Source: a virus
Length of the DNA stretch: 64,000 nucleotides
Strand: one strand, 5' to 3'
IMG/VR virus record: IMGVR_UViG_3300020463_000008
Location: 67,092 to 131,091 of that record
The position numbers and the translations under genes are program-made. Each line of letters opens with the position of its first letter. The first letter of the stretch is position 1. Positions 1 to 64,000 of the stretch are shown here, piece by piece. The notes beneath the pieces were generated by a model. It searched no databases. It was not told the DNA's origin and saw only the letters and a list, made by a program, of their open reading frames with translations.

Positions 1-139
1 TTGCACCTTGCAGTGCAGATACTAAGTTTCCATATGTAATATGTTTTGTAGTAGATTCAGAAGTGTCAACAACCAGTAATTTGTCTATAGACTCTGGAGT
101 CGCTAATACTGGTAATTCACTAATTTTTGCGTCAGCCAT
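1..139 (-). CDS. Partial ORF (runs off window start), N-terminus MADAKISELPVLATPESIDKLLVVD, virion/fibre-type N-terminal motif
   Basis: Manual translation from ATG at 139 with upstream AGGAG RBS; open to window edge. Confidence 0.7.
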   Translation of the reverse strand, partial: MADAKISELPVLATPESIDKLLVVDTSESTTKHITYGNLVSALQGA

Positions 140-148
140 TTAAACTCC

Positions 149-565
149 TTATTTTTTCTTGCCAATATTATATTTAGGCACTAATTCCCAAGAAGATTTA
201 TCTTTATGGGATAAAACTTTTATCTGAGACAAGGATGCTTTTGGCTCTGCTTGCTCAGATTTAACAATTTTTAAGAGCTCCCAATCCTGTAGTAATACAG
301 CTATCGTGTTTCTTCGCTCTATATCGTTATTAGCAATATTAGATTCTTTACCATCTAATGCGAATAGTTCTTTGAAGTGTACTATGAAATACTTGCCTTG
401 TTTATGAAGTATATGGCAAGACTGGAATAATTTATTTTCTGTTCGGGAAGATATCCCGATTCTTGTAAGGGTTTCTCTCACTTTCAGAAAGTTATCTGGT
501 TCTGGCAGAGTCACTTCTAACATAGACTCTGGAGACCAATCGTAATGTATCATCTCAACTGACAT
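149..565 (-). CDS. regA: RegA translational repressor
   Basis: PDNFLKVRETLTRIGI, QSCHILHKQGKYFIVHFKELFALDGK, WELVPKYNIG; follows gp62. Confidence 0.97.
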   Translation of the reverse strand: MSVEMIHYDWSPESMLEVTLPEPDNFLKVRETLTRIGISSRTENKLFQSCHILHKQGKYFIVHFKELFALDGKESNIANNDIERRNTIAVLLQDWELLKIVKSEQAEPKASLSQIKVLSHKDKSSWELVPKYNIGKKK

Positions 566-567
566 TT

Positions 568-951
568 TTATTTACCACCTTTATTTAATTTTTGTTCAAT
601 AATGCTCATCTGGTCAGTTGTTAATATATCCATCACCTGACGAGCCTTTTCTGGAGAATATCCATAATATTCCATAACCAGTTTTAAGGACTCGGTCTGT
701 TTATCTTGCTTATGCCACTTCGAAAACCTTTTGCCTTTTTCAATAGTATTTAGTAAAAAATAGTATTGCCAAGACCTTGGGATATCATGATAGCGATTCA
801 TCATGTTTGCCTGCATGATTGTATCAGGATAATATCCTAGTCCACGATTGACAATAAAGGGTGCATAATCCTTTTCGGCAAGTGGATTATCCTTAAATAA
901 ATCCTTCTTGTCGTTGGTGATATTGTTTATGTAGAGAAATGGATTTGCCAT
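568..951 (-). CDS. gp62: Clamp loader small subunit gp62
   Basis: YAPFIVNRGL, RFSKW, VMEYYGYSPEKA motifs; position between gp44 and regA. Confidence 0.93.
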   Translation of the reverse strand: MANPFLYINNITNDKKDLFKDNPLAEKDYAPFIVNRGLGYYPDTIMQANMMNRYHDIPRSWQYYFLLNTIEKGKRFSKWHKQDKQTESLKLVMEYYGYSPEKARQVMDILTTDQMSIIEQKLNKGGK

Positions 952-1889: not shown

Positions 1890-1909
1890 AATATAAATTC
1901 CATTAATAA

Positions 1910-2908: not shown

Positions 2909-2984
2909 TGGCGAACTCAACAGGACTCGAACCTGTAATACAAGTTTAGAAGACTAGTGTGATATCCAGTTTCACCATGAGTCC
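2909..2984 (-). tRNA. tRNA-Arg (anticodon TCT)
   Basis: 76 nt cloverleaf: acceptor GGACTCA/TGAGTTC, anticodon loop CTTCTAA, T-loop GGTTCGAGTCC, encoded 3' CCA. Confidence 0.93.
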
Positions 2985-3046: not shown

Positions 3047-3487
3047 TCAGTCAATAACAGATGAATTCCTCAAGTCAGGAACTGAAGTGCCATCTTCTTT
3101 AGTAGTTTCGATATTAATACCGAAGTCCTTCAGTTCCTGGACAAAGTCCACATCTTCCTCGTCTTTTATGACAAACTTTGGTGCTGGTAAACGAGAAACT
3201 CTAATATCATCTGCTTCACGAATCGCCATTTCAGGATCCGCATTTGGAGCAGGAAAGAAATAGATGCCTTTGTCGATCTTGTTAATCTTATAATTCCAGT
3301 TAGGTGTGCCAATTTTAGGAAAGGATTTATCAGCTTCATGTTTTGCTTTCAGCTTAACAATTCCTTCAGTACATTGTTCCAATGTTATTGCACCACCAGA
3401 TGAGAGGTCTGGGTAGATCTCTATCATGTTATCTACCCACCTCTTTTGGAACTTTGTTAGTGAATAATATTCAACTAAGTCTGACAT
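3047..3487 (-). CDS. Hypothetical protein resembling the N-terminal domain of the adjacent AAA ATPase
   Basis: 146 aa ORF overlapping AAA stop by 1 nt; weak pattern similarity by eye. Confidence 0.7.
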   Translation of the reverse strand: MSDLVEYYSLTKFQKRWVDNMIEIYPDLSSGGAITLEQCTEGIVKLKAKHEADKSFPKIGTPNWNYKINKIDKGIYFFPAPNADPEMAIREADDIRVSRLPAPKFVIKDEEDVDFVQELKDFGINIETTKEDGTSVPDLRNSSVID

Positions 3488-4677
3488 TATATACCCTCCG
3501 ATTCAGATGTATATGGATTTCTATCTTCTTCAACCTCTGCTGCTTCAGGAAGTAAATCTTCCCCAGCAGAGATCTTAGAGTAAAGATCTAAGAAAGCCAT
3601 TTTAGTGACTTCATCAAATCTATTCAAGCACAGCTCAATCGCTTTAGCTTCTTTTTTGAAGATAGAGAATGCTCTCACAATGTGAGTCAATCTTCTAGTC
3701 GTAATGTTTTCATCACAACCACCATCATCAAAAGTCTTACGAACAACCTCTGCCCACTTAACTAAGTTAGAAGCAAAGTCACCAGAGTCTTTACACTCAT
3801 AATGGTTAAGAAGATTTTCAACAATCTTCAACTCTGTTTTTTGGTTAGGATAAGGTTGGTTGAAAGTGACAGCAAATCTTTCTAAGAATGCTTCATTAAG
3901 AACATTAGTCCCGATGTATCTACCATCATCAGATCCTTTACCTTTAGTGTTTGCAGTAGCAAAGATGTTAAATCCTTTAGCAGGAGTTATCATTTCATTT
4001 TTTAGTTTGAAATAAAATGGTTTTCCTTCAAGGATAGGTTGTAAACAAAGTAGAGTATTTGCTCCACCAGCATCAATCTCATCAAGAAGAAGTGGAATAC
4101 CAAATCTCATTGCGATAACAACTGGACCTTCAACAATCTCAACATTACCATCAACCAAAGTTTTAGAACCAATCAATTGGTCTTCATCAGTCATAGTATT
4201 AAGATTGACACGAATAAGAGGTTTTTTCTGCTTAGCACAGATTTGCTCAATAGTCGTAGATTTACCATTACCAGTTGGACCAGCAATGTAAGAAGGATAG
4301 AACATACCAGATCTAACAATATGATTTAGATCGGTGTAGTTTCCGAAAGCAACATAGTTAGGATCCACAGCTGGGATTAAACTATCTCTATCCACAGTAG
4401 AAGATAAAGCAGAAGATTTCAAAGGAACCACTTTTGGTGGCACTTCAGTTTCAGCTACAGTATTTGCTACTGGTTTTGTTATAGAACCTCCAGGAATTAC
4501 ATAGAGTGCTGGGGAAGCACCTGCAACTTTGTTTTCCCAGACTATGCCTGGAACTGGAGTACCTGACTTTCTAACAGCCAGAACCTGTGCTTGAGTCATT
4601 TCTTGACTCACTGCAACTTCAGGAAAGAGCTCGTATGCTTTTTCAATAAATGCAGTTTGTTTTGATAAGTTTGTCAT
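3487..4677 (-). CDS. cobS: MoxR/CbbQ-family AAA+ ATPase (phage CobS-like)
   Basis: Walker A GPTGNGKST, Walker B LLLDEID, ATANTKGKGSDDGRYIGTNVLNEAFLERF, ITTRRL. Confidence 0.9.
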   Translation of the reverse strand: MTNLSKQTAFIEKAYELFPEVAVSQEMTQAQVLAVRKSGTPVPGIVWENKVAGASPALYVIPGGSITKPVANTVAETEVPPKVVPLKSSALSSTVDRDSLIPAVDPNYVAFGNYTDLNHIVRSGMFYPSYIAGPTGNGKSTTIEQICAKQKKPLIRVNLNTMTDEDQLIGSKTLVDGNVEIVEGPVVIAMRFGIPLLLDEIDAGGANTLLCLQPILEGKPFYFKLKNEMITPAKGFNIFATANTKGKGSDDGRYIGTNVLNEAFLERFAVTFNQPYPNQKTELKIVENLLNHYECKDSGDFASNLVKWAEVVRKTFDDGGCDENITTRRLTHIVRAFSIFKKEAKAIELCLNRFDEVTKMAFLDLYSKISAGEDLLPEAAEVEEDRNPYTSESEGI

Positions 4678-4706
4678 AATATAATTTTACCTCGCTTTTT
4701 TAATTA

Positions 4707-4802
4707 TCAATACAAGTATTCTACTAAATTTTGACCCAAAAGTAAAGCATTATTTCACTTTTTTTTAGTTTATTTTGTTATTAAAAAACAATGACTTATA
4801 AC
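4707..4802 (-). repeat. ~96 bp promoter-containing direct repeat, copy 1
   Basis: Near-identical to 9708-9803; contains TTTACT-17-TAGAAT (4718-4746), A/T tract and IHF-like site. Confidence 0.92.
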
Positions 4803-4804
4803 CT

Positions 4805-5062
4805 TTATTTGCTTTCAGCCAAAAAATTATTGAAAGATATCTGTCCAGATGGCTCTTTCCAGGTCCCATCAGTGTTATAATGGACAGGCATTTCTTTAGT
4901 TTTATCATATTCTAAAATAGTCTTTTTAATATGATATCCTTCTTCATTCTTCATACTCATAAATTTATGAAGCACTTTATTATTTGGATCTACTCTCCAA
5001 AGTTCGATGGCAAGATAATCTATAACCTTTTCATCCATACTAGTTTTCAAATGTTTTCCCAT
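4805..5062 (-). CDS. Hypothetical protein
   Basis: 85 aa ORF with AGGAGA RBS. Confidence 0.8.
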   Translation of the reverse strand: MGKHLKTSMDEKVIDYLAIELWRVDPNNKVLHKFMSMKNEEGYHIKKTILEYDKTKEMPVHYNTDGTWKEPSGQISFNNFLAESK

Positions 5063-5079
5063 AATATATTTCTCCTTTG

Positions 5080-5157
5080 TTAATGGTAGTGTTTTATTAC
5101 ACCTGCTATAATAAAGAAGCAGGTAATAATCTCTAAATAAAATTTAAACTTTTTCAT
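5080..5157 (-). CDS. Small hydrophobic peptide MKKFKFYLEIITCFFIIAGVIKHYH (25 aa)
   Basis: Manual translation; fills the intergenic gap; single TM-like segment. Confidence 0.5.
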   Translation of the reverse strand: MKKFKFYLEIITCFFIIAGVIKHYH

Positions 5158-5166
5158 TGTCTCAAC

Positions 5167-5832
5167 TTAGTAGTTAAATAAATCAAAGTCTTCTTTATAA
5201 AGATCTTCAATTAAAGTTTTGCCAGCATCAATATATTCACTATCACTATGCTCTGGCATTCTAGTGGTAGTATTGAGATGAACATCATAGTTTTCATCTT
5301 CAATCTTTTTTGCGACTACATTAGATTTAATCCATAAGTTTTGTTGTAGCCATGGGCGATATACAAAATATTCATCCATCTCTTTATTTGCTTTTCCTAT
5401 AATCTCTAACCAACGACAATAGTTTTCTGTATTAGGATCTTTAGTAAGAATGTTTAATTTATTAAAAAGCATTTTATCAAACTTACTTGGATTCTTCATA
5501 AAGAGTTCTGTAGCATTTAATCCTATCGTTTGTTTATGTTCACTAATTTGAAATTCAATTCTATCAGGCGATATATATTTCTGTGGCATATATTGAAGTT
5601 CATAATAAAACAAATACATAGATAACATTCTATTATGTGGATTTCTTACATGCGTATAGATACAATCATAATCTTTATACATTTCATCATAAGGACTATG
5701 TTTTCCTGTTGGTACTTCTTGAAACTCATCGCCATACTTTTCAATCAAACTATATTTCTCAGTTGTCCCACCTGTCTTAGGAATGTGAATGTAATAAACT
5801 TTTTTTGGAACTATGTATGTCATTCTACCCAA
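5167..5832 (-). CDS. Sulfotransferase family 2-like protein
   Basis: YIHIPKTGGTT (5'-PSB), VRNPHNRMLSMY (3'-PB), C-terminal YKEDFDLFNY. Confidence 0.85.
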   Translation of the reverse strand: MGRMTYIVPKKVYYIHIPKTGGTTEKYSLIEKYGDEFQEVPTGKHSPYDEMYKDYDCIYTHVRNPHNRMLSMYLFYYELQYMPQKYISPDRIEFQISEHKQTIGLNATELFMKNPSKFDKMLFNKLNILTKDPNTENYCRWLEIIGKANKEMDEYFVYRPWLQQNLWIKSNVVAKKIEDENYDVHLNTTTRMPEHSDSEYIDAGKTLIEDLYKEDFDLFNY

Positions 5833-6656
5833 TCAACTTTAATTTTTTTTCTCGGTGCTTTTGGTGGAAGATAACTTTTAAAAGTTTCAATCCATTTTTC
5901 TTTTGGTCTTGTGAAAGAATACATATACAGTCCTCGTTCATTTGGCATATATCTATATAATTCATCATCATGAATATATTGTAGTTTTAATTCTTTTCGT
6001 TTATTCATCATATAGGCATCCATCATAAAGATAATATCTTCACCAACTTTAAGATCTTCTTTAAATTTTAATTTATGATACGATCCTTTATGAAAGCCAA
6101 TCAATCTATTTAATGTACCTTTCTCATTCTTAGGATGCTGATAAAATTTATTTACCATTTCTTCCATCTCAAGCATTGTAGCAATCCATGTATCAGGTCT
6201 TTTAAATTCTTCTTCTAGTTCTCCCATTATCTTTTGTGCTAGTACTGTACCATCTGCTTTTAAAGTTTCTCCTTGCCATTCCATTTTACCACCAGAAGTA
6301 AATAAGAAGTCACCTGTAAATTGTTTTTTAAATAGTTTGGGCATAGTATCACCCCAAACATCATCGCCATCTATCATAAAACAATAGTCAAAAAATCTTA
6401 AATTAGTATCCATACCAAAGTGTTGCATCATTCTATTTTTACCAAGTCCTGGCATACCATTAGATACACTAGAGGAAAAATAATGGCATTTATCTTTTAC
6501 TGCATTCTTCATCAGGTCAATATGAAAGTTATCATTAGAATTATCATGTACCCATATAGGATATCCTTGACATGACTCCATACATCGTAATACATCAAAT
6601 TTTGTTTGATGCGTACTTGTTAAAATTCCAATGACTGCTCTATGACCTGAATACAT
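5820..6656 (-). CDS. GT-A fold (family 2-like) glycosyltransferase
   Basis: GILTS..., SNGMPGLGKN, FMIDGDD (DxD), GED motif; start at 6656 gives TAATG coupling (track start 6707). Confidence 0.65.
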   Translation of the reverse strand: MYSGHRAVIGILTSTHQTKFDVLRCMESCQGYPIWVHDNSNDNFHIDLMKNAVKDKCHYFSSSVSNGMPGLGKNRMMQHFGMDTNLRFFDYCFMIDGDDVWGDTMPKLFKKQFTGDFLFTSGGKMEWQGETLKADGTVLAQKIMGELEEEFKRPDTWIATMLEMEEMVNKFYQHPKNEKGTLNRLIGFHKGSYHKLKFKEDLKVGEDIIFMMDAYMMNKRKELKLQYIHDDELYRYMPNERGLYMYSFTRPKEKWIETFKSYLPPKAPRKKIKVDWVE

Positions 6657-6883
6657 TAAGTTTTTCCTGAGCAAAGAAATAAAGGAATACCACCATTGTG
6701 TTGCCACTGTTGAGTACTGCCTTGAGTTTTCGCAATTGCATATGCTTCTTTTTTAGTATCGCAATATACAATAATTTTATTTTGTATGTCACCACCATTT
6801 TCAATTACTTGAAATTTTTTACCAAGTCTTTTTACATGGTATCTTAATTTTTTAGATGGTGGTGGGGTTTTCTCTTTTCTCAT
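6656..6883 (-). CDS. Hypothetical protein
   Basis: 75 aa ORF overlapping both neighbours. Confidence 0.75.
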   Translation of the reverse strand: MRKEKTPPPSKKLRYHVKRLGKKFQVIENGGDIQNKIIVYCDTKKEAYAIAKTQGSTQQWQHNGGIPLFLCSGKT

Positions 6884-7227
6884 AATGTTGTGCCATGTCC
6901 TTCCTTTTTAGCATTTATTAAGAGGTTTGCTCGGCTTTGAACCCACTCGTCTTTGAGAGGTAAATGATGACCAGTGGATCCATCCCACCGAGCAAATGCT
7001 TCGTCATAGAAATCTATGGTACAAAGCAGGGGATTATCGTTTTGCAACGATGTAAGTTCGTCAGCCCATTTCTGCCAAGTATGGTCATCGACTATACTTT
7101 CATCCATCTCATAATATATGCAGGAATGAACTAACATCTGACTTCTTCTTTGTTTAATCTTTTCTTTTAACTTTTGCGATTCTTCGTTAGTAGTGTCTAT
7201 CGGTAAAGCCATTGCATCATCTCCCAT
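6880..7227 (-). CDS. Stand-alone NAD-dependent DNA ligase domain Ia-like protein
   Basis: VHSCIYYEMDESIVDDHTWQKWADEL resembles LigA H-xx-YY-xxD-P-ISDxEYD; true start may be slightly downstream (MALPID). Confidence 0.65.
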   Translation of the reverse strand: MGDDAMALPIDTTNEESQKLKEKIKQRRSQMLVHSCIYYEMDESIVDDHTWQKWADELTSLQNDNPLLCTIDFYDEAFARWDGSTGHHLPLKDEWVQSRANLLINAKKEGHGTTL

Positions 7228-24431: not shown

Positions 24432-25025
24432 TTAAATGTTGATAGGGAATGAGCCAATCGGAGTATCGATTGAAATGTTCACTCCTAATCCACCACTTTC
24501 GCTGGTATTACTTGTAAAGAAGTTGTATTGGAATTCAACATCAAATGTCTCAATAGCATTTGTTGTATCGTAGTCCAACTGAACTATACCAATAGATAAT
24601 GGGAAAGAGTCAACAAATTTATATTGTTTTACTCCAGCACCATTTCTATCTAGTTGTGTTACAAGTAGGTCAGCTTGGTAATCATTCGGATTAGTACGAC
24701 CTGATGTAGTCGCATATTCCTGAATACCATTTTGCCATCTTTCGATTGCGTTTCTAATACCGAAGTCTGTGTCGTTATAAACAGTGACTGTCCATGGAGC
24801 AAATGTTCTCTCCGCAGCAAAGTTTACAGCACGACCTCTATATTGGATCGGCAAATTTTCTAGTGTACTAGCAGGTAATTGTGCAGCCTTACATAAGAAC
24901 TGTCCTTGTACAGCAGCAACTCTTCCACCAGTGACATAAGAAGGGAAAGCCAAATCGACACGAAACTGATTAGGACGAGCTCCGCCACCAGTCATATTCG
25001 CTTTAAAATCAGCAATATTAGCCAT
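24432..25025 (-). CDS. gp19: Tail tube protein gp19
   Basis: GGARPNQF, FLCKAAQLP, WTVTVYND. Confidence 0.96.
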   Translation of the reverse strand: MANIADFKANMTGGGARPNQFRVDLAFPSYVTGGRVAAVQGQFLCKAAQLPASTLENLPIQYRGRAVNFAAERTFAPWTVTVYNDTDFGIRNAIERWQNGIQEYATTSGRTNPNDYQADLLVTQLDRNGAGVKQYKFVDSFPLSIGIVQLDYDTTNAIETFDVEFQYNFFTSNTSESGGLGVNISIDTPIGSFPINI

Positions 25026-49700: not shown

Positions 49701-52700
49701 CTGAAGCAGTTAGTCTTTGTAATTTACCACCATCAGTTCCAGTATAAGCAGAAGTTCTTGCATAAGAATCGAATGCTGAAACATTTGTACCATCTAGATT
49801 TGCTAGAGTAATAGTAGTTCCTGACACTGCAGTAATTTTAAAGTATTTTCTATTTAATTGTTTTGAGTGATTGCTTCCAAGAGTAGTAATAGTTGAAGAT
49901 ATATTTTGTTCTATATCTCTATTGTTAGTTGCGTTAGTTCCTCTTGTAGCATTTAAGTTATATAAGAAAACATGATGTCCTGGATTTAAACCAGTAGCAT
50001 CTTGAACTGTTAAGTTAAAACTTGGTGCACCATCAGCAGAAGTAATATGAGTAATCGTATCAATTCTTGCTGCAGTGTGAGTAGCATTTTTAATTACATC
50101 ACCAAAGTTAAATGCGTTTACAATTTTACCATCGTAAGCTCTAGCAGGATCGTCTGCTAATAATCCAGTTGATAATTTTTCTGGTTCAAGGATAGGTGTA
50201 GTTGTACTAGCAACCTGTGTGACTTTAAATATGTCAGATGGTTTTACATAATTGGTATCAACTCTTTCACCATCAATGAATACAAAATATTGAGAATTAG
50301 GTTTAGAGTTTCTAGCATCAATATTAATTACCTCATCTTTAATGTAAGGTATGTATGACATGTCAACAACTTTGTCACCATAGTTTTGTGAGTTAGTTGT
50401 TGTAGATATAGTAGTTCTTGTACCACCTCTTGTTCTGTTTCCTGTTTCAGTAGTAGTCACAGATTGGAAAGTATTGGTAGTTTGGAACTGACCAGATCTA
50501 GTGGTACTAGAGAATGCTCCTCCAGCTTGACTTGAAGAACCAGTCCAGTTATCTGCCCACTCATTCCAGTTAGTACCAGTGACTCCAGTTTGTTCAGCTA
50601 AGAATCTAATAGCATCTGAGTTATTATCATCTTGCACTGTAAGGTCTGGTCGTCTATCTACATCTTTCCAGATACTTGACTCTGGGAATAAGTTTACTTC
50701 AACTTTATAAGCACCGATCTTATATGGGTTTACATCAAGAGCTCTAGTAGCATTTGGATTGCTTACCATACTTGTCTCAGTATATGGAAGTGTTATTAGA
50801 TCTCCAGTTTTAGTATATCCTCTTGTTGCTCTTTGAGTAGTGTTTGAAATATTTTCTATAACTGTTAATACATCTGTAAAGTGAGCTGGTCTTAGTGTTC
50901 TGTTTTTCTTATCTATAGAAACATTATAATCTTCTGACTTAACATTACCTACACCATGACCAGTAAAGTCATCAACTACAAATCCATTTTTAAATCTATC
51001 TAATCCAGTAGCAGCATCTTTTATTGCTGTTGATTTTGTATCTTTTTCTAGTAGTGATAATGAAGTATAATATTCTAGATTTTTAATTCTACTTTCAAGA
51101 GCACCAATATCTCTCATAGTATATCTTCTATTATCTCTTTGATAAACTTTTACATCTCCAACTTTTTTAGTGTATGGTGGAATTTTCATAGTAGCAAGTA
51201 CCAATCCTTGTTTAGGATCTTCTGGTTCTTGCGGAGTTTCAGCAGGTTGTCCTGCTACTATTTGAATAGTGCCTTTACTTGATATTGAAACTTTATCCCA
51301 TCTACCAACATAGAATGCAACTGGTGTTGTTAAGTCTGTACCAATCTTAGGTATCTCAGGAGAAAATGTATTAGAGCCTGAAATAACTGGACGATAATCT
51401 ACAGTATCATGTAAATCAATAGTTGTAGTATTTCCTGATTCGTCTTGGTATTCGAAACTTGGAATATCTGCATAGTCAATTGCTGAGTAAGAATCAACTG
51501 AGAAGAAGTTTCCTGAACCAGTATAAGCAAAATATCTATAAGTGACTTTTATTGCTCCAGTAGGAACTGGTGCACCAGACTTTAATCTTAGTCTTGCTTT
51601 TTGATAGTGAGTTAATCTTTGTCCTGAATCTAATTCGTAGTTTGCTGTAATATCTACAGCTGTCACATCAGAGTGAGCAGTAAAGTTTCCTGGAACCATA
51701 GTCACTGATGTAATATCAATACCATCAGCATAAGATAATTCTATTTCAGGTTTTACAACATTTGTTTTTCCAGTAAATACTTCAGCAGATGTAGATCGTA
51801 CTTTTGTTTTTTCAGTTGCTGCAGCATTTACTTGAAGAACTGAAGTGTATAATGTACAGGATGTACCATTTGTTCCTGCAGCAATCGTCACTTCTTTTCT
51901 ATTAGCATCATCATCGAAAGTAATATCAGCAGCAGATATATTAATTACTGCTCCAGTATCATTTCTGATTAATGTATAGTTAGATAATTCTGTATCAGAT
52001 AAGAAAGTTTCATTAACATTACTTAATGTCATAACGAAATCTCCACTACCTGTGGTTGTATTAGTATTCACTCGTCTTACAGTATGAATAGTTTGTTCTA
52101 ATGTATCAGTAGCATTACTTGAGTCAAAACCTTTTAATGATTTTGTAAATTGGAATCCTGTTGGGTATAGTAGTGAATTATATTGTGGCTCTTTTAATTG
52201 AGCACGACCTAGAGATATTGATACTCCAGTTAATCCAGTATTATCTGAGTTAGATGGTCTTTGTACTGTAGCAGATATTTGACTTGCAATAGCTGTCACG
52301 AAACCAACAGTTTGTCCAGAGTGTACTATTGCGTCTCCAACTTTTAATTCGTTTTGAAATAATGTACCAACACCAGTCATAGTAGCAGCAGTTCCACCAC
52401 TTTGTGCTGGTAGTGATATAGATCCTGATAAATTAATTGGATCGCTATCTGCACTAGGATCTACTTCTGCGTAGAAATCTGCAGTACCTGTTATTGCTCC
52501 ATTACTTGAACTAGCAATCCAAGTGACATCACGAGCGAACGATTTTCCTTCGTTCATTGAAACATTAAATAAACTTGTTTTAAATGTTGGTGAAGAATAT
52601 GAACCATTATGTAATTGGAAACTTCTAATGAAAGCAGTACCAACTAATCCTGAATAAGATGAGAGTGCACTTGTTGGTGCACTATAAGCTGATACACCTG

Positions 52701-54096
52701 AACTTAACCATGCAGCTCCACTAGTATCAAATAAAAATACTTTTTCAAAACTATTTACAGCTGGTGCTTTACTAATATTTCTAGCAATAAAGTAATTACC
52801 TATTGAAGTTCCTACAGGCTGACTTGCTTCTCTTATAACTGAATTGTTTTCGCTTGTAGTTCCACCAACAGTAGTTGGTCTAGATTTATCAACAGCATAA
52901 TAAGTTGTTTGAGTTGCCTCAACTTCGAATCCTTCAACATATGCTTTTCCAGGATCTACTACAACAGCAAACTTATCTGTATCGCCATAAGTAGCAGTAG
53001 CATCATAAGATGATGATGTAGTTCCAGGAGATGCTTGATAAACACCTACCCCAGATCCATCATCTAAATGTTCTTTGATTGATAATTTGAATTTGTTTGT
53101 TTCGTAAGAACCTGACTCATCAAAAGTTCTTCGTGCTAAAGTTTTTTCTAACTCAGCATAACTTGCTCTTTCAACTTTTTGTTGAGTGATACCATCTTTA
53201 ACTCTAATCAACTCAACAAATTTAATTGAGTCAGTACCAGTTAGTGGAAGTCTTTTTAATCCTAATGATATTTTATATCTATGAGCTCCAGGTGCAGCAA
53301 AGTTATTTGTGCCTTGGGCATTATCGTTAAGAGTAGTATCTTCCTCTGGAGTCACTACATCTTCTGTGACTTCAAATCCTACTCTATTAGATGGGGTTGT
53401 ATCAAATCTTGATATGTATAAATGGATCTCAGCATTTTGTACAAAGAATCCATCTATGTAATAAATTCCTTCTCGTACTTCTACTCTATATGATTTACCA
53501 AGTACATCAGTTGATGCGTTCTCTGTATAAGTTGTACCAACATTACCATTGTCACCAAACGATTTGATTGTGACTTTAATGTCAGTTGCTTGGTTAGCAG
53601 TAAGTCTGAAGTTTGTAGTTGTACTATTATCAACAGCAGTTGCAACGATCTCTTCACCAGCAACAAACTTTTTAGTTGTTCCTGATGTACCTGAGTCCAT
53701 CATAGTAAAGTGTAGCGATGGTATCGTACTATCGCCAGCTACCATACAAGAACATTCTGAAGTATCTTCTACTAGAGCTTTCGCTCCAGAAGTTTGACCA
53801 GTAATTATTTTATCTTTAAATTGAGTTAGATAGGTTGTGACAGCATCTCCATCTTGTAAGTCATTCAACTTCATGAAGTTTACTTCACTGTTCACATTTA
53901 CAGATCCAGGAATAACCATACTTCCATTTTCGAAAATATGGTTTCCAAATCTTGAGACCTGTCGTTGTAAGATTGTTTGAAGAGTAGTTAGCTCTCTTGC
54001 TTGTACTGAATATCCAGGACGAAATAGTACACGCAAGAAATCTTTACTAGTATCATAATCATCGTAGTATGGACTTACATTGAAATTTATTGTCAT
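46753..54096 (-). CDS. VrlC/DUF4815-like large baseplate protein (2447 aa)
   Basis: NVSPYYDDY, FRPGYSVQARELT, APGAHR, LARRTFDESG, RRYTMRDIG, DPLAQTF. Confidence 0.9.
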   Translation of the reverse strand: MTINFNVSPYYDDYDTSKDFLRVLFRPGYSVQARELTTLQTILQRQVSRFGNHIFENGSMVIPGSVNVNSEVNFMKLNDLQDGDAVTTYLTQFKDKIITGQTSGAKALVEDTSECSCMVAGDSTIPSLHFTMMDSGTSGTTKKFVAGEEIVATAVDNSTTTNFRLTANQATDIKVTIKSFGDNGNVGTTYTENASTDVLGKSYRVEVREGIYYIDGFFVQNAEIHLYISRFDTTPSNRVGFEVTEDVVTPEEDTTLNDNAQGTNNFAAPGAHRYKISLGLKRLPLTGTDSIKFVELIRVKDGITQQKVERASYAELEKTLARRTFDESGSYETNKFKLSIKEHLDDGSGVGVYQASPGTTSSSYDATATYGDTDKFAVVVDPGKAYVEGFEVEATQTTYYAVDKSRPTTVGGTTSENNSVIREASQPVGTSIGNYFIARNISKAPAVNSFEKVFLFDTSGAAWLSSGVSAYSAPTSALSSYSGLVGTAFIRSFQLHNGSYSSPTFKTSLFNVSMNEGKSFARDVTWIASSSNGAITGTADFYAEVDPSADSDPINLSGSISLPAQSGGTAATMTGVGTLFQNELKVGDAIVHSGQTVGFVTAIASQISATVQRPSNSDNTGLTGVSISLGRAQLKEPQYNSLLYPTGFQFTKSLKGFDSSNATDTLEQTIHTVRRVNTNTTTGSGDFVMTLSNVNETFLSDTELSNYTLIRNDTGAVINISAADITFDDDANRKEVTIAAGTNGTSCTLYTSVLQVNAAATEKTKVRSTSAEVFTGKTNVVKPEIELSYADGIDITSVTMVPGNFTAHSDVTAVDITANYELDSGQRLTHYQKARLRLKSGAPVPTGAIKVTYRYFAYTGSGNFFSVDSYSAIDYADIPSFEYQDESGNTTTIDLHDTVDYRPVISGSNTFSPEIPKIGTDLTTPVAFYVGRWDKVSISSKGTIQIVAGQPAETPQEPEDPKQGLVLATMKIPPYTKKVGDVKVYQRDNRRYTMRDIGALESRIKNLEYYTSLSLLEKDTKSTAIKDAATGLDRFKNGFVVDDFTGHGVGNVKSEDYNVSIDKKNRTLRPAHFTDVLTVIENISNTTQRATRGYTKTGDLITLPYTETSMVSNPNATRALDVNPYKIGAYKVEVNLFPESSIWKDVDRRPDLTVQDDNNSDAIRFLAEQTGVTGTNWNEWADNWTGSSSQAGGAFSSTTRSGQFQTTNTFQSVTTTETGNRTRGGTRTTISTTTNSQNYGDKVVDMSYIPYIKDEVINIDARNSKPNSQYFVFIDGERVDTNYVKPSDIFKVTQVASTTTPILEPEKLSTGLLADDPARAYDGKIVNAFNFGDVIKNATHTAARIDTITHITSADGAPSFNLTVQDATGLNPGHHVFLYNLNATRGTNATNNRDIEQNISSTITTLGSNHSKQLNRKYFKITAVSGTTITLANLDGTNVSAFDSYARTSAYTGTDGGKLQRLTASAIISYAGVKDSATVRDVHVTNVKNGFAVSEQVTGTADIGLGAKNTLTLTSINGSTVSTTAPTMKATGGSIVSDKEGALNAVLYIPAGRYRTGERSIKLSDNISNTDADFDSFGSALFTANGMQLAKERTVVSSRNLSFVEDRLFQSQPIRRSSVSNRLISSNRIRVAGGGGGGGGGSGNGGGQGHDPLAQTFVVQSDGGAFVTSVDLYFKQAGERPIYVEIRTTDNEVPSTKILPFSQVILQPADITTSTNGSVATNFKFKAPIYLQENESYALVCKVDEPGCEAYISELGGTDLLTENIVGIQPLTGSLYLSQNSREFEINPLLDLKFNLNQASFTADTNGVVQLKANPAETKLLNKDPFQFTNGSELVRVHQRNHGFSANDIVMISGVANGLYGANSTTLGASQDLLNGAHTIQTNGLQKDSYVIDLETVDAQNNDILDGTTADFITGRYGGSVVMASRQLTADALYLKTEDLDFDDCKLAYTVNSTSLAGTASGDKPIVPNATYNFENRKVVKSFENQTTVSSTPLIKTPTLTFNATMSTSNKNVSPILDLQKLGGYAISNLVDSSSTAINVPSIDQKKLINTGDIGLALSTSSGTGTVSTTSASPTVTGSGTSFTTQVSVGDTLTTSAGALGRVKTISSNTSITLCANTAQVSTASTFQITSDPVITFKHGAKGVESNIDAIDNLLDNVIAGSQLYLTNIHSELNGAIDVESVSTTADTLPFGGNEELDKVTINKTSNFSFSEANDIKLDVAQNFTEQVAGFTVTAATSSINVTASGSVDGKLVAGDILVVEDADGPGSLATVGGVQVFNKTILGTVASVNGTNIALAANATTALTAKNIVIRKDISASTWNFSTMEEFVSDTAPVGATNLANYITRTLELANPADALNITFDAYIPKSTDIDVYYKAFSGDTNPDTLNWIDSGFNVASKDSGENFRERNIIVNDIPDFTKVVVKIVMKSTDTTYVPKVQAFRLIAHS

Positions 54097-54153: not shown

Positions 54154-55557
54154 TTACATCTCAACGATGATTTTTATATCTTCTATCTGGTCGCTTGCTC
54201 TGTTAATCGGTCTACGATTTTCTACATATAACATATCTCCACTATCAGGTTGAACTTCTGGGTTGTTTAAAGTAGCACTTGTGAAAGTAATACCTGTTGC
54301 CGAACCAGCAGCATCATTCATTGTGACAGTTTCTGCAGACTGAAAGTTTACTCCAGTTGGATTATCAGTAGCAGTTTGGATATATCTAATTGTAGATGTA
54401 CCTGTGTCAATAGAAATAATTCTACCAACAGCATTAGAAGTACCACCAGCAAAAGTTCTATCAACAACTAACGATCCACCAGAGAGTGAAGTGAAAGTCA
54501 TAGATTTAGTTGAACTCAATGTAGTAGCAGTAGCAGTCACAGTTCCACCAAAGTTGTATGGATCTCTAACTAATGTAATTCTTCTGTAATCGTTATCAAC
54601 TGGAAAGTCTCCAGTACCATCTGCATATTCTAAACGAACATTCATCATGGCATAGAAAGCACCTAACTCTTCTTCAGCATTCGCACCATGTCCACCTTTT
54701 GGTGATATGATTGCAGATGCAGCAGCAGCAGATCCGCCACCACCTGAAAAAGAAACATTAGCAAAAGTATAACCAGAACCACCATTAGTCACAGTAATAC
54801 CTGTGACAGTATTTGTACCACTATCATAAACTGCATCAGCAGCAGCACTTGAACCATCACCAGTAATTGCGACAGTTGGTGCACTTGAATAAGATGTACC
54901 ATTGTTAGTCACAGTGATATGTTCAATCTTACCATCAACTGCAGCTTGCTCAACTAGATATTGATTGTAGTAAGGATCAGTAGATCCTGGATTGGTTATT
55001 ACTTTTTTTGCAGGTACAAAGTCTGTAGATACAAACTTTAATACATCAGCAGGTGATACAGTGTACATATATTTCCATCTGTACGAATCAGCTGTAGATA
55101 TAATAGTTGTACCAGTTCCTGTTGGTTTTGTGGTGCTTTGTCCACCATTGTTGTTGTCTATGCACTTATAAACATTATACTCGTCTGTCACAACAAAGAA
55201 GTTAGCACTGAAAAGAGAAGTTGGTGTAGTACCTGCTCCACTGTCAATGTTTACTCCAGCTGTCACACCATTGTAATTATCTTTATAGATGTCATAGTAT
55301 TTGCCCGAAGTCCAGTTTCGTCTAGGAATCGCTAGAGTGACATCAGATGATTGAACTCTTTTCAAAGCAATCATGTCATCCCAACGATAGTACTCGCCAG
55401 AGACTGTATCTTTCGGAGTATCAGGGGAGTTGTCATCAGTCCATGCCTGTGGACGACCTATCCCCAAGTAGATGTTCGTTGCAGCAGATTCGGAAAAACC
55501 TTCCTGAAACGATTGCGCATTGTGAATGCGAAATTTACTTGTTATAATTGCAGCCAT
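54154..55557 (-). CDS. gp8: Baseplate wedge gp8
   Basis: YNVYKCIDN, YRWKYMY, YVENRRPINRASDQIEDIKII. Confidence 0.93.
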   Translation of the reverse strand: MAAIITSKFRIHNAQSFQEGFSESAATNIYLGIGRPQAWTDDNSPDTPKDTVSGEYYRWDDMIALKRVQSSDVTLAIPRRNWTSGKYYDIYKDNYNGVTAGVNIDSGAGTTPTSLFSANFFVVTDEYNVYKCIDNNNGGQSTTKPTGTGTTIISTADSYRWKYMYTVSPADVLKFVSTDFVPAKKVITNPGSTDPYYNQYLVEQAAVDGKIEHITVTNNGTSYSSAPTVAITGDGSSAAADAVYDSGTNTVTGITVTNGGSGYTFANVSFSGGGGSAAAASAIISPKGGHGANAEEELGAFYAMMNVRLEYADGTGDFPVDNDYRRITLVRDPYNFGGTVTATATTLSSTKSMTFTSLSGGSLVVDRTFAGGTSNAVGRIISIDTGTSTIRYIQTATDNPTGVNFQSAETVTMNDAAGSATGITFTSATLNNPEVQPDSGDMLYVENRRPINRASDQIEDIKIIVEM

Positions 55558-55588: not shown

Positions 55589-58264
55589 TTATGTTAATAA
55601 ATCCCACTTCAAGGTCGACGAATCGAAATTGTAAAGGGTTGTATCAAATTCTACACTGTCCGCATCAAAAGTGAATGCGATATCATCAAAGGTAAATGCA
55701 GGATCCTGTGTAGAGAATCTCAAACCTGATGCTGGTTGTTTAAATATACCAATCTCAGATTCGATCGCATAAGAAACTTGTGTATATGGACTATTTATAA
55801 TACTTGCAACTGTGACTTCAGAAAAATCTTTAATTTGTGTATTTCCATACTGTGAATAGTATCCTGAGTTTGGTTCTGGGTAAGTCAAACGAGGATCATC
55901 TTCAAGTCCATTAGTAGTAAAGGCAGGTGTGCCAGTGCTATTAGAATATTTAGTACCTGCTAAAGAGGGTTTAAAAGTGAACTTGTATCTATCAAGGTCT
56001 ATTAAATTAAACCCAGCTCGTCTTACCGAGCCATCAAATGGTGATGAACTTCTAATTGGTAGCTGTACTATCGGAGCTCTAGCAGGTCTTTGCATATCAT
56101 AAGCAACTCTATTAGCAATTTCTAATCTCTCATCATGTTCAACAGCTAGAGGAGATAGTTCTAATAGGTTTACTTCTGCTGGTGTTAAGTTAGGGAACTC
56201 TATCTCACTAACAAAGTCAGAAGTTTGTATTCTTAAGTTGAGTACAGTATCAACTAGTGCTTCTAGATTAATTGTAAATATTTGTTTTGCTAAGTCAGGT
56301 CTATGTTCATTAGAAGTATCAGGTCTGTATGCACCAATGGCTTTTAACTTTCCATCAACAAGCATCTTAATTAGTAAGTCTACAACATACCTTTTCTTTT
56401 GTAGGTCATTAATATTACCCATGACTGCAGCAAGAATAGTTTGTATCTGTACTTCTCCAAATAATGCTAATCCTATTGGGTGTAATAATTTTTTAACAGC
56501 ATCTCTGTACTGGTCAATCGACTGACCAACCTGAACAACATATGAGAAGTCTTGATAGAATCTAGAGTCTTGAATTTTTTTAGATGACTCTGAAATAAAT
56601 CCATCGGCAGTTAAGTATCCACCCAAGCCAGTACCTGAAGCACCAACTGATGTTGTAATGTTAGGATAGTTAATATCAACAATCTCACCACTACCACCTG
56701 ACGATGAAGTCACAGTATTATTATCTGCGAAGAAACCTGAAGACTCTTGAACGAAAGTATCTCTAGTTTCAGTTATCATTCTTCCACTTCCATCTTCAAG
56801 TGCGTATGGTAAAAATACATTTGGGTTATCTACTTTTAATACTTGTTTATTCGTATCAAATATATTTACTGTTCCTGTACATATTTGTTGGTTCTCTACT
56901 AACATGTCATCACCTGTTTCTAATTTAATTCCACCTGAACCATCTTCTATTGAAAGTGATTGCGCACTTAGTGTGACTGTGTCTCCCTGATTAAATGAAC
57001 CTGTAATATTTTGTAGAACAGCAATAGCTGGAACCGAAGCGATTGGTGGAACTTTATAGTCAATACCAAATCTAGATAATTCTATCTTTCTTAATTTACC
57101 AATCGTTGTTGAAGTAGCAACAACTTTACCACCTGCTCTATTTCCAGTTGTAGGTAAACTTAGAGAAGGAAGTCTATCGTAAAAAGCTCCAGGAGTTAAA
57201 ACTGTAATTGATTTGATTGCTCCCTCATCAGATGCTTCTTGTAAATCTATATCAAAATTATTTTCTTGTAGTAGTGTTCCTCCACCACCTGCGTTTCCTG
57301 ACTCTAGTGATACTGAGTCTCTATCAATATTAGTAATAGAAGCACGAGCAGATAATTGTGCGTTAGATCCAGGTCCACCTGTTCCTGTATTGTTAAAAAT
57401 TATTTCGTCATTTATTTTATAACCAGATCCTGCAGTTTCAATAGTCACTCCAGTAATACCACCAGAGTCAATCTCAGTTATCTCACCTCTTGCTTCACTT
57501 CCTGTTGGTGATACAATTGTAATTAAATCTCCAATATCATAATACGATCCACCTTGCTGAACATTAAATCCTGTAATAATTGAAACAACAGTTGCAGTAA
57601 TTACATTTTGAGTTGATGGTGCAGTTGCTGTTATAGTTCTAACTATAACTTCATCCTCAGATAAAAATGTTCCAGTAAATGATTCGTCATCTATTGTTAA
57701 ATCTGTGACAGTCTTAGAACCTATTTGAGTTGATACTGCATTCTCAACGAAAGCTGTGACAGTTCTAAATGTACCATCACCCACTGGTTGTGTTTGAGAT
57801 ATAGTAGCACCAATTAATTCTAATGGCGAACCACCTGTTGCATCAGTGACACGAATAACTGTATCAGCTGACCAAGTTCCTGACGATGGTCTTAGTAGTG
57901 CTGTCTTTGGAAAAAATAATTCTGCGTCTTCATTAAATAGAATACGAAATAAAAATTTGTAAGATTGTTCTGTACCTTTAGATCTATAGATATCTTGAAT
58001 TCTTTTTGCTAGTAATCTTTTATCAGTAAGTACACCTTGTGGTATAGGTTGCATAATCTCACTTTTAAAATGGTCAATAAACATATCAACTGTTGTATCA
58101 ATGTCACGAATGTCTTCTAATTGAGATTGTGGCAAGTAAGTACCTTGCATCCATTCATAGTATGCTTCAAGGAATGCTTTAAAGTTTGTGCTGTCGTCCG
58201 TGATAAAATCAGGTATCTGATTTCCAACTACAGTTGAGACTTTTGCTTTAACAGAACTTGGCAT
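55589..58264 (-). CDS. gp7: Baseplate wedge gp7
   Basis: FLEAYYEW, YRSKGTEQS, KIQDSRFYQDFSY, LHPIG. Confidence 0.88.
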   Translation of the reverse strand: MPSSVKAKVSTVVGNQIPDFITDDSTNFKAFLEAYYEWMQGTYLPQSQLEDIRDIDTTVDMFIDHFKSEIMQPIPQGVLTDKRLLAKRIQDIYRSKGTEQSYKFLFRILFNEDAELFFPKTALLRPSSGTWSADTVIRVTDATGGSPLELIGATISQTQPVGDGTFRTVTAFVENAVSTQIGSKTVTDLTIDDESFTGTFLSEDEVIVRTITATAPSTQNVITATVVSIITGFNVQQGGSYYDIGDLITIVSPTGSEARGEITEIDSGGITGVTIETAGSGYKINDEIIFNNTGTGGPGSNAQLSARASITNIDRDSVSLESGNAGGGGTLLQENNFDIDLQEASDEGAIKSITVLTPGAFYDRLPSLSLPTTGNRAGGKVVATSTTIGKLRKIELSRFGIDYKVPPIASVPAIAVLQNITGSFNQGDTVTLSAQSLSIEDGSGGIKLETGDDMLVENQQICTGTVNIFDTNKQVLKVDNPNVFLPYALEDGSGRMITETRDTFVQESSGFFADNNTVTSSSGGSGEIVDINYPNITTSVGASGTGLGGYLTADGFISESSKKIQDSRFYQDFSYVVQVGQSIDQYRDAVKKLLHPIGLALFGEVQIQTILAAVMGNINDLQKKRYVVDLLIKMLVDGKLKAIGAYRPDTSNEHRPDLAKQIFTINLEALVDTVLNLRIQTSDFVSEIEFPNLTPAEVNLLELSPLAVEHDERLEIANRVAYDMQRPARAPIVQLPIRSSSPFDGSVRRAGFNLIDLDRYKFTFKPSLAGTKYSNSTGTPAFTTNGLEDDPRLTYPEPNSGYYSQYGNTQIKDFSEVTVASIINSPYTQVSYAIESEIGIFKQPASGLRFSTQDPAFTFDDIAFTFDADSVEFDTTLYNFDSSTLKWDLLT

Positions 58265-63061: not shown

Positions 63062-63252
63062 CGTAGTTTTAACTCCTCTAATTTAAATGGAAAGGTTGCG
63101 AGATACTCATGGTTATGATTGCCCTCGTCATCCAGCTCCGATGGTTTAAATAAAATAATCTCAATAATATTATCAGGTATCTTATCATAGTCCGCAAAGA
63201 TCTTAACCTCTTTCGGATTCTCTTTCGTAATTACTTCGAATCTACCCCTCAT
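63040..63252 (-). CDS. Hypothetical protein upstream of PAAR
   Basis: YDKIP..I.F.P...H pattern; GAGGAG RBS before ATG 63252 (track start 63276). Confidence 0.7.
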   Translation of the reverse strand: MRGRFEVITKENPKEVKIFADYDKIPDNIIEIILFKPSELDDEGNHNHEYLATFPFKLEELKLRCQQSRE

Positions 63253-63433
63253 CAATCTCTCCTCGAATAAACTCAATCATCTCATCGCTGATATCATATA
63301 CAGTCGGATCGTCCTTACTCTCAAGTGCAGCTAACAGCTTCTGCTTGTCCTCGAGCGAAGCAGACTTATCAATTACCTCTCTCTGCCACCAGCTCTTAAA
63401 ATGATTTAATGTTGCTTTCATATTGTTTTCCAT
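63242..63433 (-). CDS. Hypothetical protein
   Basis: 63 aa ORF overlapping both neighbours. Confidence 0.6.
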   Translation of the reverse strand: MENNMKATLNHFKSWWQREVIDKSASLEDKQKLLAALESKDDPTVYDISDEMIEFIRGEIDEG

Positions 63434-63777
63434 TGTTCTCTTATCTTGGTTGCACTAATTGCCTGCGTGGCTTCGTCCAACACTTCTTCCTCAATCGTAT
63501 AACCCACTCCACGACCATAAGTAATATGCGTGATGTTGGGTACACCCTGTATCTCGTATTCCCGACCATACTCAAACCCAGCCAAACTTAATGCTCCTCG
63601 GATTCTCGCAGTTCTATCTCGTATCGTTAAGGGATTCTCATCAGTCCCATCTTCTTCACGCAATAATATTATAACTTGACCAGTTTTGGAAAGTGCTCTC
63701 TTAAATAACTCTGTATGCCCATCATGCCAGGGTTGAAACCGACCAAGGAGCTGTGTAGTTGCTTTGCTTCTATCCAT
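63418..63777 (-). CDS. HxGH-class nucleotidyltransferase (cytidylyltransferase-like)
   Basis: GRFQPWHDGH, NPL, YGRGVGY, ISATKIR. Confidence 0.88.
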   Translation of the reverse strand: MDRSKATTQLLGRFQPWHDGHTELFKRALSKTGQVIILLREEDGTDENPLTIRDRTARIRGALSLAGFEYGREYEIQGVPNITHITYGRGVGYTIEEEVLDEATQAISATKIREQWKTI

Positions 63778-64000
63778 TGTAATACCTCTATATTACTTGT
63801 AGTGGGATCCTCCCACAGTTGATTAGTGTCCTCGTACTTCGAAGACTCTCTTGTGTTCATCCATATAGTATAAGATGCTTTGACCAAACCTCGTAAATCA
63901 TTTGTAGGACAAACAAAGTCAAGGATACCAAAGGGCATATTCCGCATACGATTTGCCTGAGTCACTCTGCCCTCATAACTAAAATCCCAATCGCCATAGT
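63669..64000 (-). CDS. Adenylyl-sulfate (APS) kinase-like protein, 5' end outside window
   Basis: Frame open to the edge: DWDFSYEGRVTQANRM...DFVCPT...IWMNT...YEDTN..WEDP. Confidence 0.75.
   Translation of the reverse strand, partial: YGDWDFSYEGRVTQANRMRNMPFGILDFVCPTNDLRGLVKASYTIWMNTRESSKYEDTNQLWEDPTTSNIEVLQWIEAKQLHSSLVGFNPGMMGIQSYLREHFPKLVKL

Follow-up and report, generated by a model that had tools for sequence, protein, structure and literature searches.

The virus genome analysed here has been purged of the pentamer GTWAC (W, A or T) by restriction-site avoidance far beyond chance, and the few copies that remain in it all read TGTWACA. The window, that is, the whole stretch of 64,000 nucleotides under study, covers bases 67092-131091, the 3' half, of the 131,091-bp linear record IMGVR_UViG_3300020463_000008 in IMG/VR (35% G+C; CheckV completeness ~73%, and absences from the record are absences from ~73% of the genome). 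Its gene content assigns the phage to the T4-like myoviruses, since PHROG scans found a portal, tail sheath, tail tube, gp23-type major head protein, scaffold, large terminase and SbcC-like nuclease. For the surviving sites we infer a DNA modification limited to TpG/TpC contexts and, for the purge, host restriction as the selective agent. It appears somewhat probable, judging from the genes and the surviving sites, that site avoidance is combined with a TpG/TpC-limited hypermodification of thymine by the phage's own dioxygenase-kinase-transferase cluster.

An exact scan found eight GTWAC sites in the window, and the same eight are all that the record holds (5-mer starts 24658, 34419, 34806, 36141, 37740, 39309, 43847 and 49094). 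Every one is TGTWACA and none lies before 24657, which agrees with the sequence-only reading, an earlier inspection of the letters by eye, down to the start of each 7-mer. Dinucleotide-preserving shuffles of the window (n = 100) gave an expectation of 112.65 GTWAC (standard deviation 11.28). In a stricter null, synonymous codons were shuffled inside each gene, leaving the protein and the per-gene codon usage unchanged; expectations below are from this codon-shuffle null, and counts written a/b are observed/expected. It predicted 150.1 GTWAC in the window (150 shuffles; standard deviation 7.5, minimum 129) and 222.5 in the record (200 shuffles; standard deviation 10.1, minimum 196), against eight observed in each case (z = -21 for the record). 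The earlier rough estimates of more than 100 GTWAC and about 14 TGTWACA were thus close to the nulls for the window (112.65-150.1 and 17.4). TGTWACA is tolerated, though not fully, with 8 sites against 17.4 in the window and 8 against ~25 in the record (24.8-25.2; z = -3.6). The 15 other flank combinations together had no GTWAC in the record, where 197.5 were expected.

The sites were lost at the expense of codon choice. Valine is encoded by GTT or GTA in 2002 of 2612 codons (77%) overall, yet in only 8 of 191 (4%) before threonine, while four outgroup phages use GTT or GTA for 74-88% of the valines before threonine. GTSAC (S, G or C) is enriched in the record (239 vs 117.6 expected). Both its abundance and the codon cost of writing Val-Thr as GTC-ACN had been noticed by eye. 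All eight survivors read NNT-GTW-ACA (X-Val-Thr), and synonymous recoding would be possible for each. They are listed here by window position:

24657-24663, TGTTACA, in the tail-tube gene (24432-25025, minus strand), codons CTT GTA ACA, Leu-Val-Thr
34418-34424, TGTAACA, in a gene for a 610-aa structural protein (34085-35917, minus strand), codons GGT GTT ACA, Gly-Val-Thr
34805-34811, TGTTACA, also in the 610-aa structural gene (34085-35917, minus strand), codons GGT GTA ACA, Gly-Val-Thr
36140-36146, TGTTACA, in a 99-aa open reading frame (ORF), codons AGT GTA ACA, Ser-Val-Thr
37739-37745, TGTAACA, in a gene for an 1831-aa structural protein (37220-42715, minus strand), codons GGT GTT ACA
39308-39314, TGTTACA, also in the 1831-aa structural gene (37220-42715, minus strand), codons GGT GTA ACA
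43846-43852, TGTTACA, in a gene for a 748-aa baseplate/fibre-like protein (43702-45948, minus strand), codons GGT GTA ACA
49093-49099, TGTAACA, in a gene for a 2447-aa protein (46753-54096, minus strand), codons TTT GTT ACA

The tail-tube site (TGTAACA in the coding sense, Leu-Val-Thr-Gln-Leu) occurs at the same position in the relatives G001, G003 and L081-L093, despite being recodable; it has either been tolerated for long or else is useful. For the site at 34418, the orthologous positions of G001 and G003 have the T/A flank on a single side.

Searching IMG/VR with the head, portal and SbcC proteins yielded 240 loci, and five large contigs were taken whole. The record itself (G000) forms one lineage beside G001/G002 and G003/G004/G005, the three being 80-83% identical to one another. 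GTWAC was purged in every relative with a portal identity of at least 85% or an SbcC identity of at least 73% (L173 being the lowest), and likewise in L001 and L002, with a head protein identity of ~80%. Relatives at 71% identity or less had normal GTWAC, and the observed/expected ratio was 0.80-1.06 in nine outgroup genomes (G006-G009, G011-G015). GTWAC avoidance tracks lineage rather than general composition.

An origin of the pattern in codon usage, dinucleotide bias or the make-up of the proteins, with no nuclease at work, could appeal to the position of the survivors in Val-Thr-rich structural genes and to the null itself, in which 85% of TGTWACA sites fall in the Val-Thr frame. We give this explanation practically no credence and reject composition or codon bias as the cause, because the dinucleotide and codon-shuffle nulls and the outgroup genomes all disagree with it: 222.5 sites would be expected where eight are found even when protein and codon usage are preserved, and neither the outgroup GTWAC ratios nor their valine codons before threonine resemble those of this phage. 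The depletion thus held against a protein-preserving null over the whole record and in the relatives, and codon and dinucleotide bias, which might have undone the sequence-only reading, did not account for it. All eight survivors lie in the structural-gene region (P ~1e-3, for a region chosen post hoc). A recent import as the cause of their clustering within 24.4 kb was mostly rejected, since 42.8% of the null TGTWACA sites fall within the same genes.

Survivors in the relatives followed the same flank rule. Orthologous positions were collapsed into independent sites over 34 sequences, which also include L001-L002, L081-L093 and L161-L173. Among 39 independent GTWAC survivors, 29 were TGTWACA, nine had one T/A flank, one was mixed (TGTWACA in some orthologues, one-flanked in others) and none lacked a flank altogether. 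The null shares for both, one and no flank are 0.109/0.444/0.447, and the excess has P = 2.6e-20. Within the Val-Thr frame, where the null share of T...A is 0.152, it has P ~2e-17, with 37 of the 39 sites taken as in that frame and reading frames verified in G000, G001, G003 and G005. L001 has four surviving sites, which lie in its terminase gene, its portal gene and two further genes; none is shared with the window. The one-flank survivors of G001 and G003 comprised four with only the coding-strand 5' T and four with only the 3' A; they occur in either orientation, as expected if duplex DNA is recognised, and site and flank rule together are palindromic, i.e. strand-symmetric. Of the bases ahead of the protective T, C was disfavoured before TGTWACA (3/39.3); outgroup TGGCCA sites showed no preference at that position.

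GTWAC is one of many words that this clade avoids. The window lacks ACGT, GGCC, CCGG, CGCG, TGATCA, GTATAC, GTTAAC and TAGCTA. Summed over G000, G001 and G003, as are the counts for other words below unless stated, the purged 4-mers were ACGT (0/557), CCGG (0/143), GGCC (2/142), GCGC (4/122) and CGCG (4/74), and the purged 6-mers GTATAC (0/55), GTTAAC (0/60), AAGCTT (2/93), GCTAGC (1/24), GGTACC (4/33) and TGATCA (0/75). The split by central base seen in GTWAC recurred: ACSGT was absent (0/267) vs ACWGT at 1.16 of expectation, and GCSGC was absent (0/52) vs GCWGC at 1.02. Many non-palindromic 5-mers were near zero as well, such as GAGGC/GCCTC (2/180), ACGCC/GGCGT (0/103) and ACGGG/CCCGT (0/63), and CpG was tolerated chiefly as TCG. 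In all, no fewer than 15 different words are avoided in the clade; outgroup genomes avoid two to five each, none of them GTWAC.

Restriction avoidance extends to the protein sequence through a near-ban of Trp-Pro, whose codons TGG-CCN force a GGCC. The dipeptide was found at 0/15.7 in G000, 1/14.5 in G001, 1/6.1 in G003 and 4/22.2 in G009, and at 24/31.9 and 18/23.5 in the GGCC-tolerant G013 and G014. The pentamer TGATC/GATCA is depleted too (42/230 in G000, 7/227 in G001 and 7/115 in G003; 56/573 in the clade), with GATC overall at 0.74 of expectation and no TGATC/GATCA depletion in the outgroups; this could reflect an asymmetric TGATC-type nuclease or a modification-dependent enzyme. Two further patterns were seen at finer scale. 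TAGCTA is missing in G000 only (0/50, with 15/33 in G001 and 6/19 in G003), and its avoidance looks like a recent, strain-level one. ACCWGG is gone from the window unless A comes next (ACCWGGT 0/15.9, ACCWGGC 0/4.9, ACCWGGG 0/4.4), and a strand asymmetry is present in ACCWGGA at 3/16.8 vs TCCWGGT at 14/14.9.

The T...A flank also marks the survivors of other avoided palindromes. In the window, 15 of 17 such survivors were T...A-flanked. The ten GCGC survivors of the clade split into eight with T...A, one with one flank and one with none (null T...A share 0.077, P = 5e-8), and the eight of CGCG into four, four and none. CTATAG stood at expectation with both flanks (13/12.2), where it reads TCTATAGA, and fell to 5/41 with one flank and 0/33 without. 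All GCGC, CGCG and CTATAG survivors in the clade could be recoded. The sites concerned in the window are the following:

55514-55519, TGCGCA, codons AAT GCG CAA, recodable; one of two GCGC in the record, where 49 were expected
56961-56966, TGCGCA, codons AGT GCG CAA; the second GCGC of the record
84-91, 34461-34468, 50912-50919 and 57983-57990, TCTATAGA; the four CTATAG of the window, all T...A-flanked
33089-33096, TGCTAGCA; the sole GCTAGC of the record, T...A-flanked
38086-38093, AGGTACCA; the sole GGTACC of the window, flanked by T/A on a single side
18952-18959, GAAGCTTC, in the major head gene; the sole AAGCTT of the record, with an orthologous site in G003 and G005

Not every flanking T protects. 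When the T...A class was sorted by the first base of the site (G000, G001 and G003), sites beginning with G survived at 29/118 and those with C at 16/37, compared with 0/71 for A and 1/20 for T. Rescue requires T then G or C, and T then A or T gives none; therefore it is the TpG or TpC step that rescues, not the flanking T as such. GAAGCTTC fits this rule, because the final T of AAGCTT is followed by C on either strand. As an internal control, ACGT is unavoided in L001, and 53 ACGT sites (L001 with L002 and L083) had flank shares like the null, two being T...A. Among 28 eliminated 5-mers the least represented duplex steps were CA/TG (0.28) and GA/TC (0.37), with AG/CT and AT also low (~0.55); this analysis is supportive only as regards step context.

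A set of genes that could produce such a modification lies directly upstream of the window, at ~52.9-58.5 kb of the record, beside helicase, recombinase and polymerase genes. Its three predicted core members, by position in locus L241, are:

5210-6511, a 433-aa Tet_JBP dioxygenase (PF12851, 81.1 bits; cut-off 34.9)
3298-4482, an amino acid:DNA transferase (PF18724 ADDT, 72.8 bits; cut-off 26.2)
926-1507, a P-loop kinase of the 5-hydroxymethyldeoxyuridine (5-hmdU) DNA kinase type (PF18751 Ploopntkinase3, 34.7 bits; cut-off 27)

The cluster also holds an FkbM-type methyltransferase and a myo-inositol-1-phosphate synthase, and the dioxygenase, of 433-434 aa, is common to G001-G004. Pfam searches of the 131 kb gave no match to the C5 cytosine methyltransferase family (PF00145), to N4/N6, D12, Dam or N6_Mtase methyltransferases, to TGT/DpdA, or to ParB_N (PF02195). 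The lack of a C5 methyltransferase in this ~73%-complete record points to thymine rather than 5-methylcytosine (5mC) as the substrate. Of the gene classes in which the sequence-only reading would have looked for a modification, DNA methyltransferases of the families searched and DpdA were thus not found, and base-modifying enzymes were, in the form of the Tet_JBP, kinase and ADDT genes.

The flank rule also extends beyond the clade. Outgroup loci pooled without sorting by dioxygenase status gave, for both/one/no flanks, 58/34/16 for GGCC, 2/16/1 for GCGC and 10/30/6 for CGCG, while the flanks of CCGG and ACGT were null-like. This prompted a comparison of phages with and without the dioxygenase. 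Tet_JBP scored above cut-off in 6 of 20 large outgroup contigs and was not found in the complete or near-complete G010, G011, G012, G013 and G014. Full-length alignment with the dioxygenase of this phage gave 49-58% identity for those of G006, G009 and G015. In these three and in G008, which are at most 73% identical mutually, GGCC survives only behind T: TGGCCA stood at 54/39, 15/22, 57/44 and 11/14.6 in the four genomes, and GGCC in V...B contexts (V, not T; B, not A) at 0/109, 0/40, 1/161 and 0/31. Forced Trp-Pro accounts for 19 of the 126 first TGGCCA sites of the dioxygenase-positive outgroups. CGCG in G009 was graded likewise (both/one/none 7/15.2, 7/54.5, 0/45.2). When the strongly avoided 4-mers of the dioxygenase-positive genomes were pooled, the T...A class survived almost fully with TpG (131/134.9), weakly with TpC (8/56.4) and not at all with TpA (0/46.4). 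In the dioxygenase-free G011/G012, GGCC was depleted without any flank rule (both/one/none 1/7.1, 9/21.9, 4/20.1), and in the dioxygenase-free G013, CGCG was removed in every class (T...A 0/12.3) and TCCGGA, if anything, preferentially.

We propose the following mechanism. Sequence-specific nucleases, most likely restriction enzymes of the marine host range, would select against their sites, and one of them would cut GTWAC or GTNAC. The sites would have been removed by synonymous recoding, mainly of Val-Thr from GTW-ACN to GTS-ACN. After replication the phage would modify part of its thymines by the successive action of the Tet/JBP dioxygenase, the P-loop DNA kinase and the amino acid:DNA transferase-like enzyme, with the inositol-synthesis genes and the FkbM methyltransferase accompanying the proposed pathway. 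The pathway would act on T with G as its 3' neighbour, and less strongly where C follows. Thymine in the TpG (and TpC) step, rather than C or G, is the most probable target. A bulky T abutting the site 5' on both strands, as in TGTWACA, or lying inside it, would hinder the nuclease, and such a site would be tolerated. One shielded flank would give partial tolerance; with no shielded flank there would be none, and the site would be lethal and purged. The genome would then retain only the sites that fall under a patchy shield, the remainder having been deleted.

The same shield might account for the words that differ by their central base. GTSAC, ACWGT and GCWGC each contain a TpG thymine within the duplex and would be shielded, so the selecting enzymes may be ordinary GTNAC, ACNGT and GCNGC types rather than W/S-specific ones. 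Enzymes of all three types exist. The sequence-only reading had excluded a GTNAC (MaeIII-type) target on the grounds that GTSAC is abundant. This holds for an unshielded target; a shielded one is compatible with the counts, as there is a TpG thymine in every GTSAC duplex.

Several observations weigh against the proposed thymine shield. CACGTG (0/18.7) and GACGTC (0/20.6) are gone although they have a TpG or TpC thymine inside ACGT, and so is TCCGGA (0/13.5). TGGCCA is at 2/21.5 in the clade and 0/6.8 in G007, TCGCGA at 0/15.5 in G008, and the T...A classes of GTATAC and GTTAAC at 0/11. The depletion of TGATC/GATCA to 56/573 arises despite TpG and TpC steps; the T flank is harmful there, the reverse of what is seen for GTWAC. 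TGTWACA itself reaches roughly a third of its expected count. GGCC survivors from within the clade were dropped as support for the flank rule: two of them are framed TGG-CCA (Trp-Pro) and are non-recodable, and survivors that are forced Trp-Pro codons are no evidence for the rule. In the comparison across phages, the dioxygenase-free side consists of one independent GGCC-depleting lineage (G011/G012, 84% identical) plus G013, and the effect of the dioxygenase cannot be separated from those of phylogeny and host. Moreover, the dioxygenase-positive outgroups do not avoid GTWAC, which makes the nuclease a separate factor.

Among the other explanations, an extended specificity needs no modification at all. 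A nuclease recognising VGTWACB, or GTWACB on either strand, would not see TGTWACA as a site and would cleave a single good half-site weakly. Taken alone, GTWAC fits VGTWACB equally well, with no survivors without flanks, nine with one and 29 with both, and to that extent the GTWACB nuclease of the sequence-only reading stands. Positions of the 'not-X' type also occur in methyltransferase motifs (BAAAA, GADTC) of marine metagenome-assembled genomes (MAGs), where GTWAC is methylated without a REBASE match, according to the sections of PMC8919816 drawn on here. We consider this explanation unlikely, though not negligible. The T...A rule holds also for GCGC, CGCG and CTATAG in the clade and for GGCC in four other genomes, and the outcome varies with the base that opens the site, G and C being rescued and A and T not. 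Neither observation is predicted by the specificity of one enzyme: exclusion of T at -1 would be required of several enzymes unrelated to each other, and a flank rule shared by several unrelated palindromes is beyond the extended specificity of a single enzyme. The second suggestion of the sequence-only reading, a context-specific modification, is favoured in its form by the same sharing of the rule, although T is a likelier base than the C of CpA or the G of TpG that it had named.

The mark could nevertheless sit elsewhere in the TpG/CpA step, on the C of CpA, the A of SpA or the G of TpG, or methyltransferases of T...A type could protect TGGCCA, TGCGCA, TCGCGA and TGTWACA. Which base of the step is marked is indistinguishable from sequence alone, the record is only ~73% complete, and TGGCCA is listed with m5C as a methylated motif of marine MAGs in the same part of PMC8919816. 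Against this, none of the methyltransferase or TGT/DpdA families searched for was matched in the 131 kb, at least four separate methyltransferases would be needed, and TCGCGA, TCTATAGA and GAAGCTTC have no CpA in the site or at its edge. This makes such a mark or such methyltransferases rather improbable. The selecting nuclease might instead be encoded by the phage, as a lone restriction-like enzyme that degrades host DNA, with the thymine shield optional. There is room for one among ~15 clade-specific ORFs without a family match. Yet no nuclease was found by Pfam among 28 of the larger of the 64 clade-specific ORFs (those matched in G001, some also in G003/G005, and unmatched in six non-avoiding genomes) or in two ORFs neighbouring the cluster, and ten Pfam-unmatched ORFs searched in PHROGs and ten in PADLOC gave no nuclease or restriction family. 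With at least 15 avoided words, which suit many host systems better than one phage enzyme, we hold a phage-borne nuclease to be very improbable.

As for the phage itself, near-identical DNA was found in 20 marine metagenome runs from 11 studies. The nearest cultured phages, with 63-66% identity in the major head protein, are the OM43 phage Melnitz, the cyanophage P-TIM40 and the Pelagibacter phage HTVC008M, and a megablast search of GenBank phages with 20 kb of the window returned a single match, of 90 nt. By crude ORF calling, 150 of 159 ORFs lie on the minus strand. Other features of the record are:

window 2909-2984, minus strand, tRNA-Arg (anticodon TCT), the sole tRNA of the record
window 28441-29334, a gp9/10-like baseplate protein with a plastocyanin-like domain
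record ~4348-6972 (L320), an alternative oxidase/PTOX gene and a cytochrome c gene
record ~8.7-36.5 kb (L320, L321), clade-specific accessory genes missing from six outgroup genomes: FabF- and FabI-type fatty-acid enzymes, a CHASE2 adenylate/guanylate cyclase, FecR, the curli secretion parts CsgG and CsgF, and an Asp/Asn beta-hydroxylase

The alternative oxidase/PTOX gene, the cytochrome c gene and the plastocyanin-like domain hint at a photosynthetic host, the first and the last of them at a cyanobacterial one, a question that they do not settle, and psbA was not found in the 131-kb record.

We know of no characterised enzyme for GTWAC, and none was found in literature searches. Hiraoka et al. 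2022 (PMC8919816) give GTWAC as a motif methylated in marine MAGs and without a REBASE match. Some marine microbes or viruses accordingly have a GTWAC-specific DNA methyltransferase, which makes a cognate nuclease plausible; in the sections used, no nuclease is reported for the motif and nothing ties it to this phage. Site avoidance in non-temperate double-stranded DNA phages was surveyed by Rusinov et al. 2018 (PMC6286503), who report that coliphages with a DNA hydroxymethylase avoid 2.4% of host sites, as opposed to 55.8% in those without it. As in the phages of that survey, short palindromes are nearly eliminated here by silent changes, several sites together. Unlike there, where modification and avoidance stand as alternatives in the part considered, the two would be combined in this phage, over at least 15 words and with survivors under a flank rule.

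In phages ViI, M6, SP10 and PhiW-14, 5-hmdU is formed at the nucleotide level before replication. Unlike in those phages, the Tet/JBP dioxygenase here would form it in DNA. Post-replicative thymidine hypermodification in phages was reportedly described by Lee et al. in 2021. For the same four phages, Lee et al. 2018 (PMC5889632) showed that hypermodified T blocks some, not all, Type II enzymes. The likeness to their pathway lies in the action on 5-hmdU of an enzyme pair, one a DNA kinase and the other of the amino acid:DNA transferase type, and in partial T modification (PMC5889632), both of them predicted for the present phage. HpyCH4IV (ACGT) fully digested complete 5-hmdU DNA in that study, and this fits the purge of ACGT in every context here. 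The sequence motifs of the modification were stated there to be unknown in 2018, and the sections used draw no link between hypermodified T and site avoidance.

Closer to the mechanism proposed here are the phage Tet/JBP T-dioxygenases 5mYOX97 and 5mYOX176, which oxidise T in DNA post-replication (O'Toole et al. 2026, PMC13229309). The 3' neighbour decides where they act, one enzyme preferring NTC and a ParB-dependent one NTG and then NTA, with 22-35% of T modified, and T-dioxygenases co-occur with kinases, amino-acid transferases and O-methyltransferases. The enzyme of this phage resembles them in its Tet/JBP family and in having a kinase and an amino-acid transferase alongside, a likeness drawn by description (PMC13229309). 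It differs from the NTG-preferring enzyme, which needs ParB, in that no ParB_N match was present in the 131 kb; the likeness to this ParB-dependent subclass, marked by an encoded ParB activator, is limited to the predicted TpG preference. In the text at hand the authors call the rationale of such modification a mystery and lean to an epigenetic-like role. The present data argue for a restriction-shield role over an epigenetic-like one. The GpC-limited phage 5mC/TET system of Burke et al. 2021 (PMC8256090) is comparable in its context-limited pyrimidine modification and post-replicative TET-family enzyme, but in the description used its 5mC is laid by a phage C5 methyltransferase, of which none was found here. 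Our text searches of the literature returned no paper that joins site avoidance with thymidine hypermodification.

Tentatively, and with rather more reserve than for the single phage, the picture might be extended to widespread marine T4-like phages. Their genomes would be the complement of a TpG/TpC thymine shield laid by a Tet/JBP dioxygenase pathway, weaker at TpC, such that nuclease targets containing or adjoining a shielded T persist and all others are lost, with Trp-Pro banned from their proteins, the surviving sites would read out the modification context in vivo, and the words with W or S at the centre would be GTNAC, ACNGT and GCNGC enzymes seen through the shield. If the proposed combination is true, context-limited post-replicative thymine modification would gain a function, and modification and site avoidance would be two halves of one anti-restriction strategy rather than alternatives. 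Surviving sites would then predict the sequence context of a DNA modification computationally, an approach applicable to thousands of uncultured phages. It would also mean that an abundant marine phage faces an unusually rich set of nucleases, including a GTWAC- or GTNAC-type activity yet to be found.

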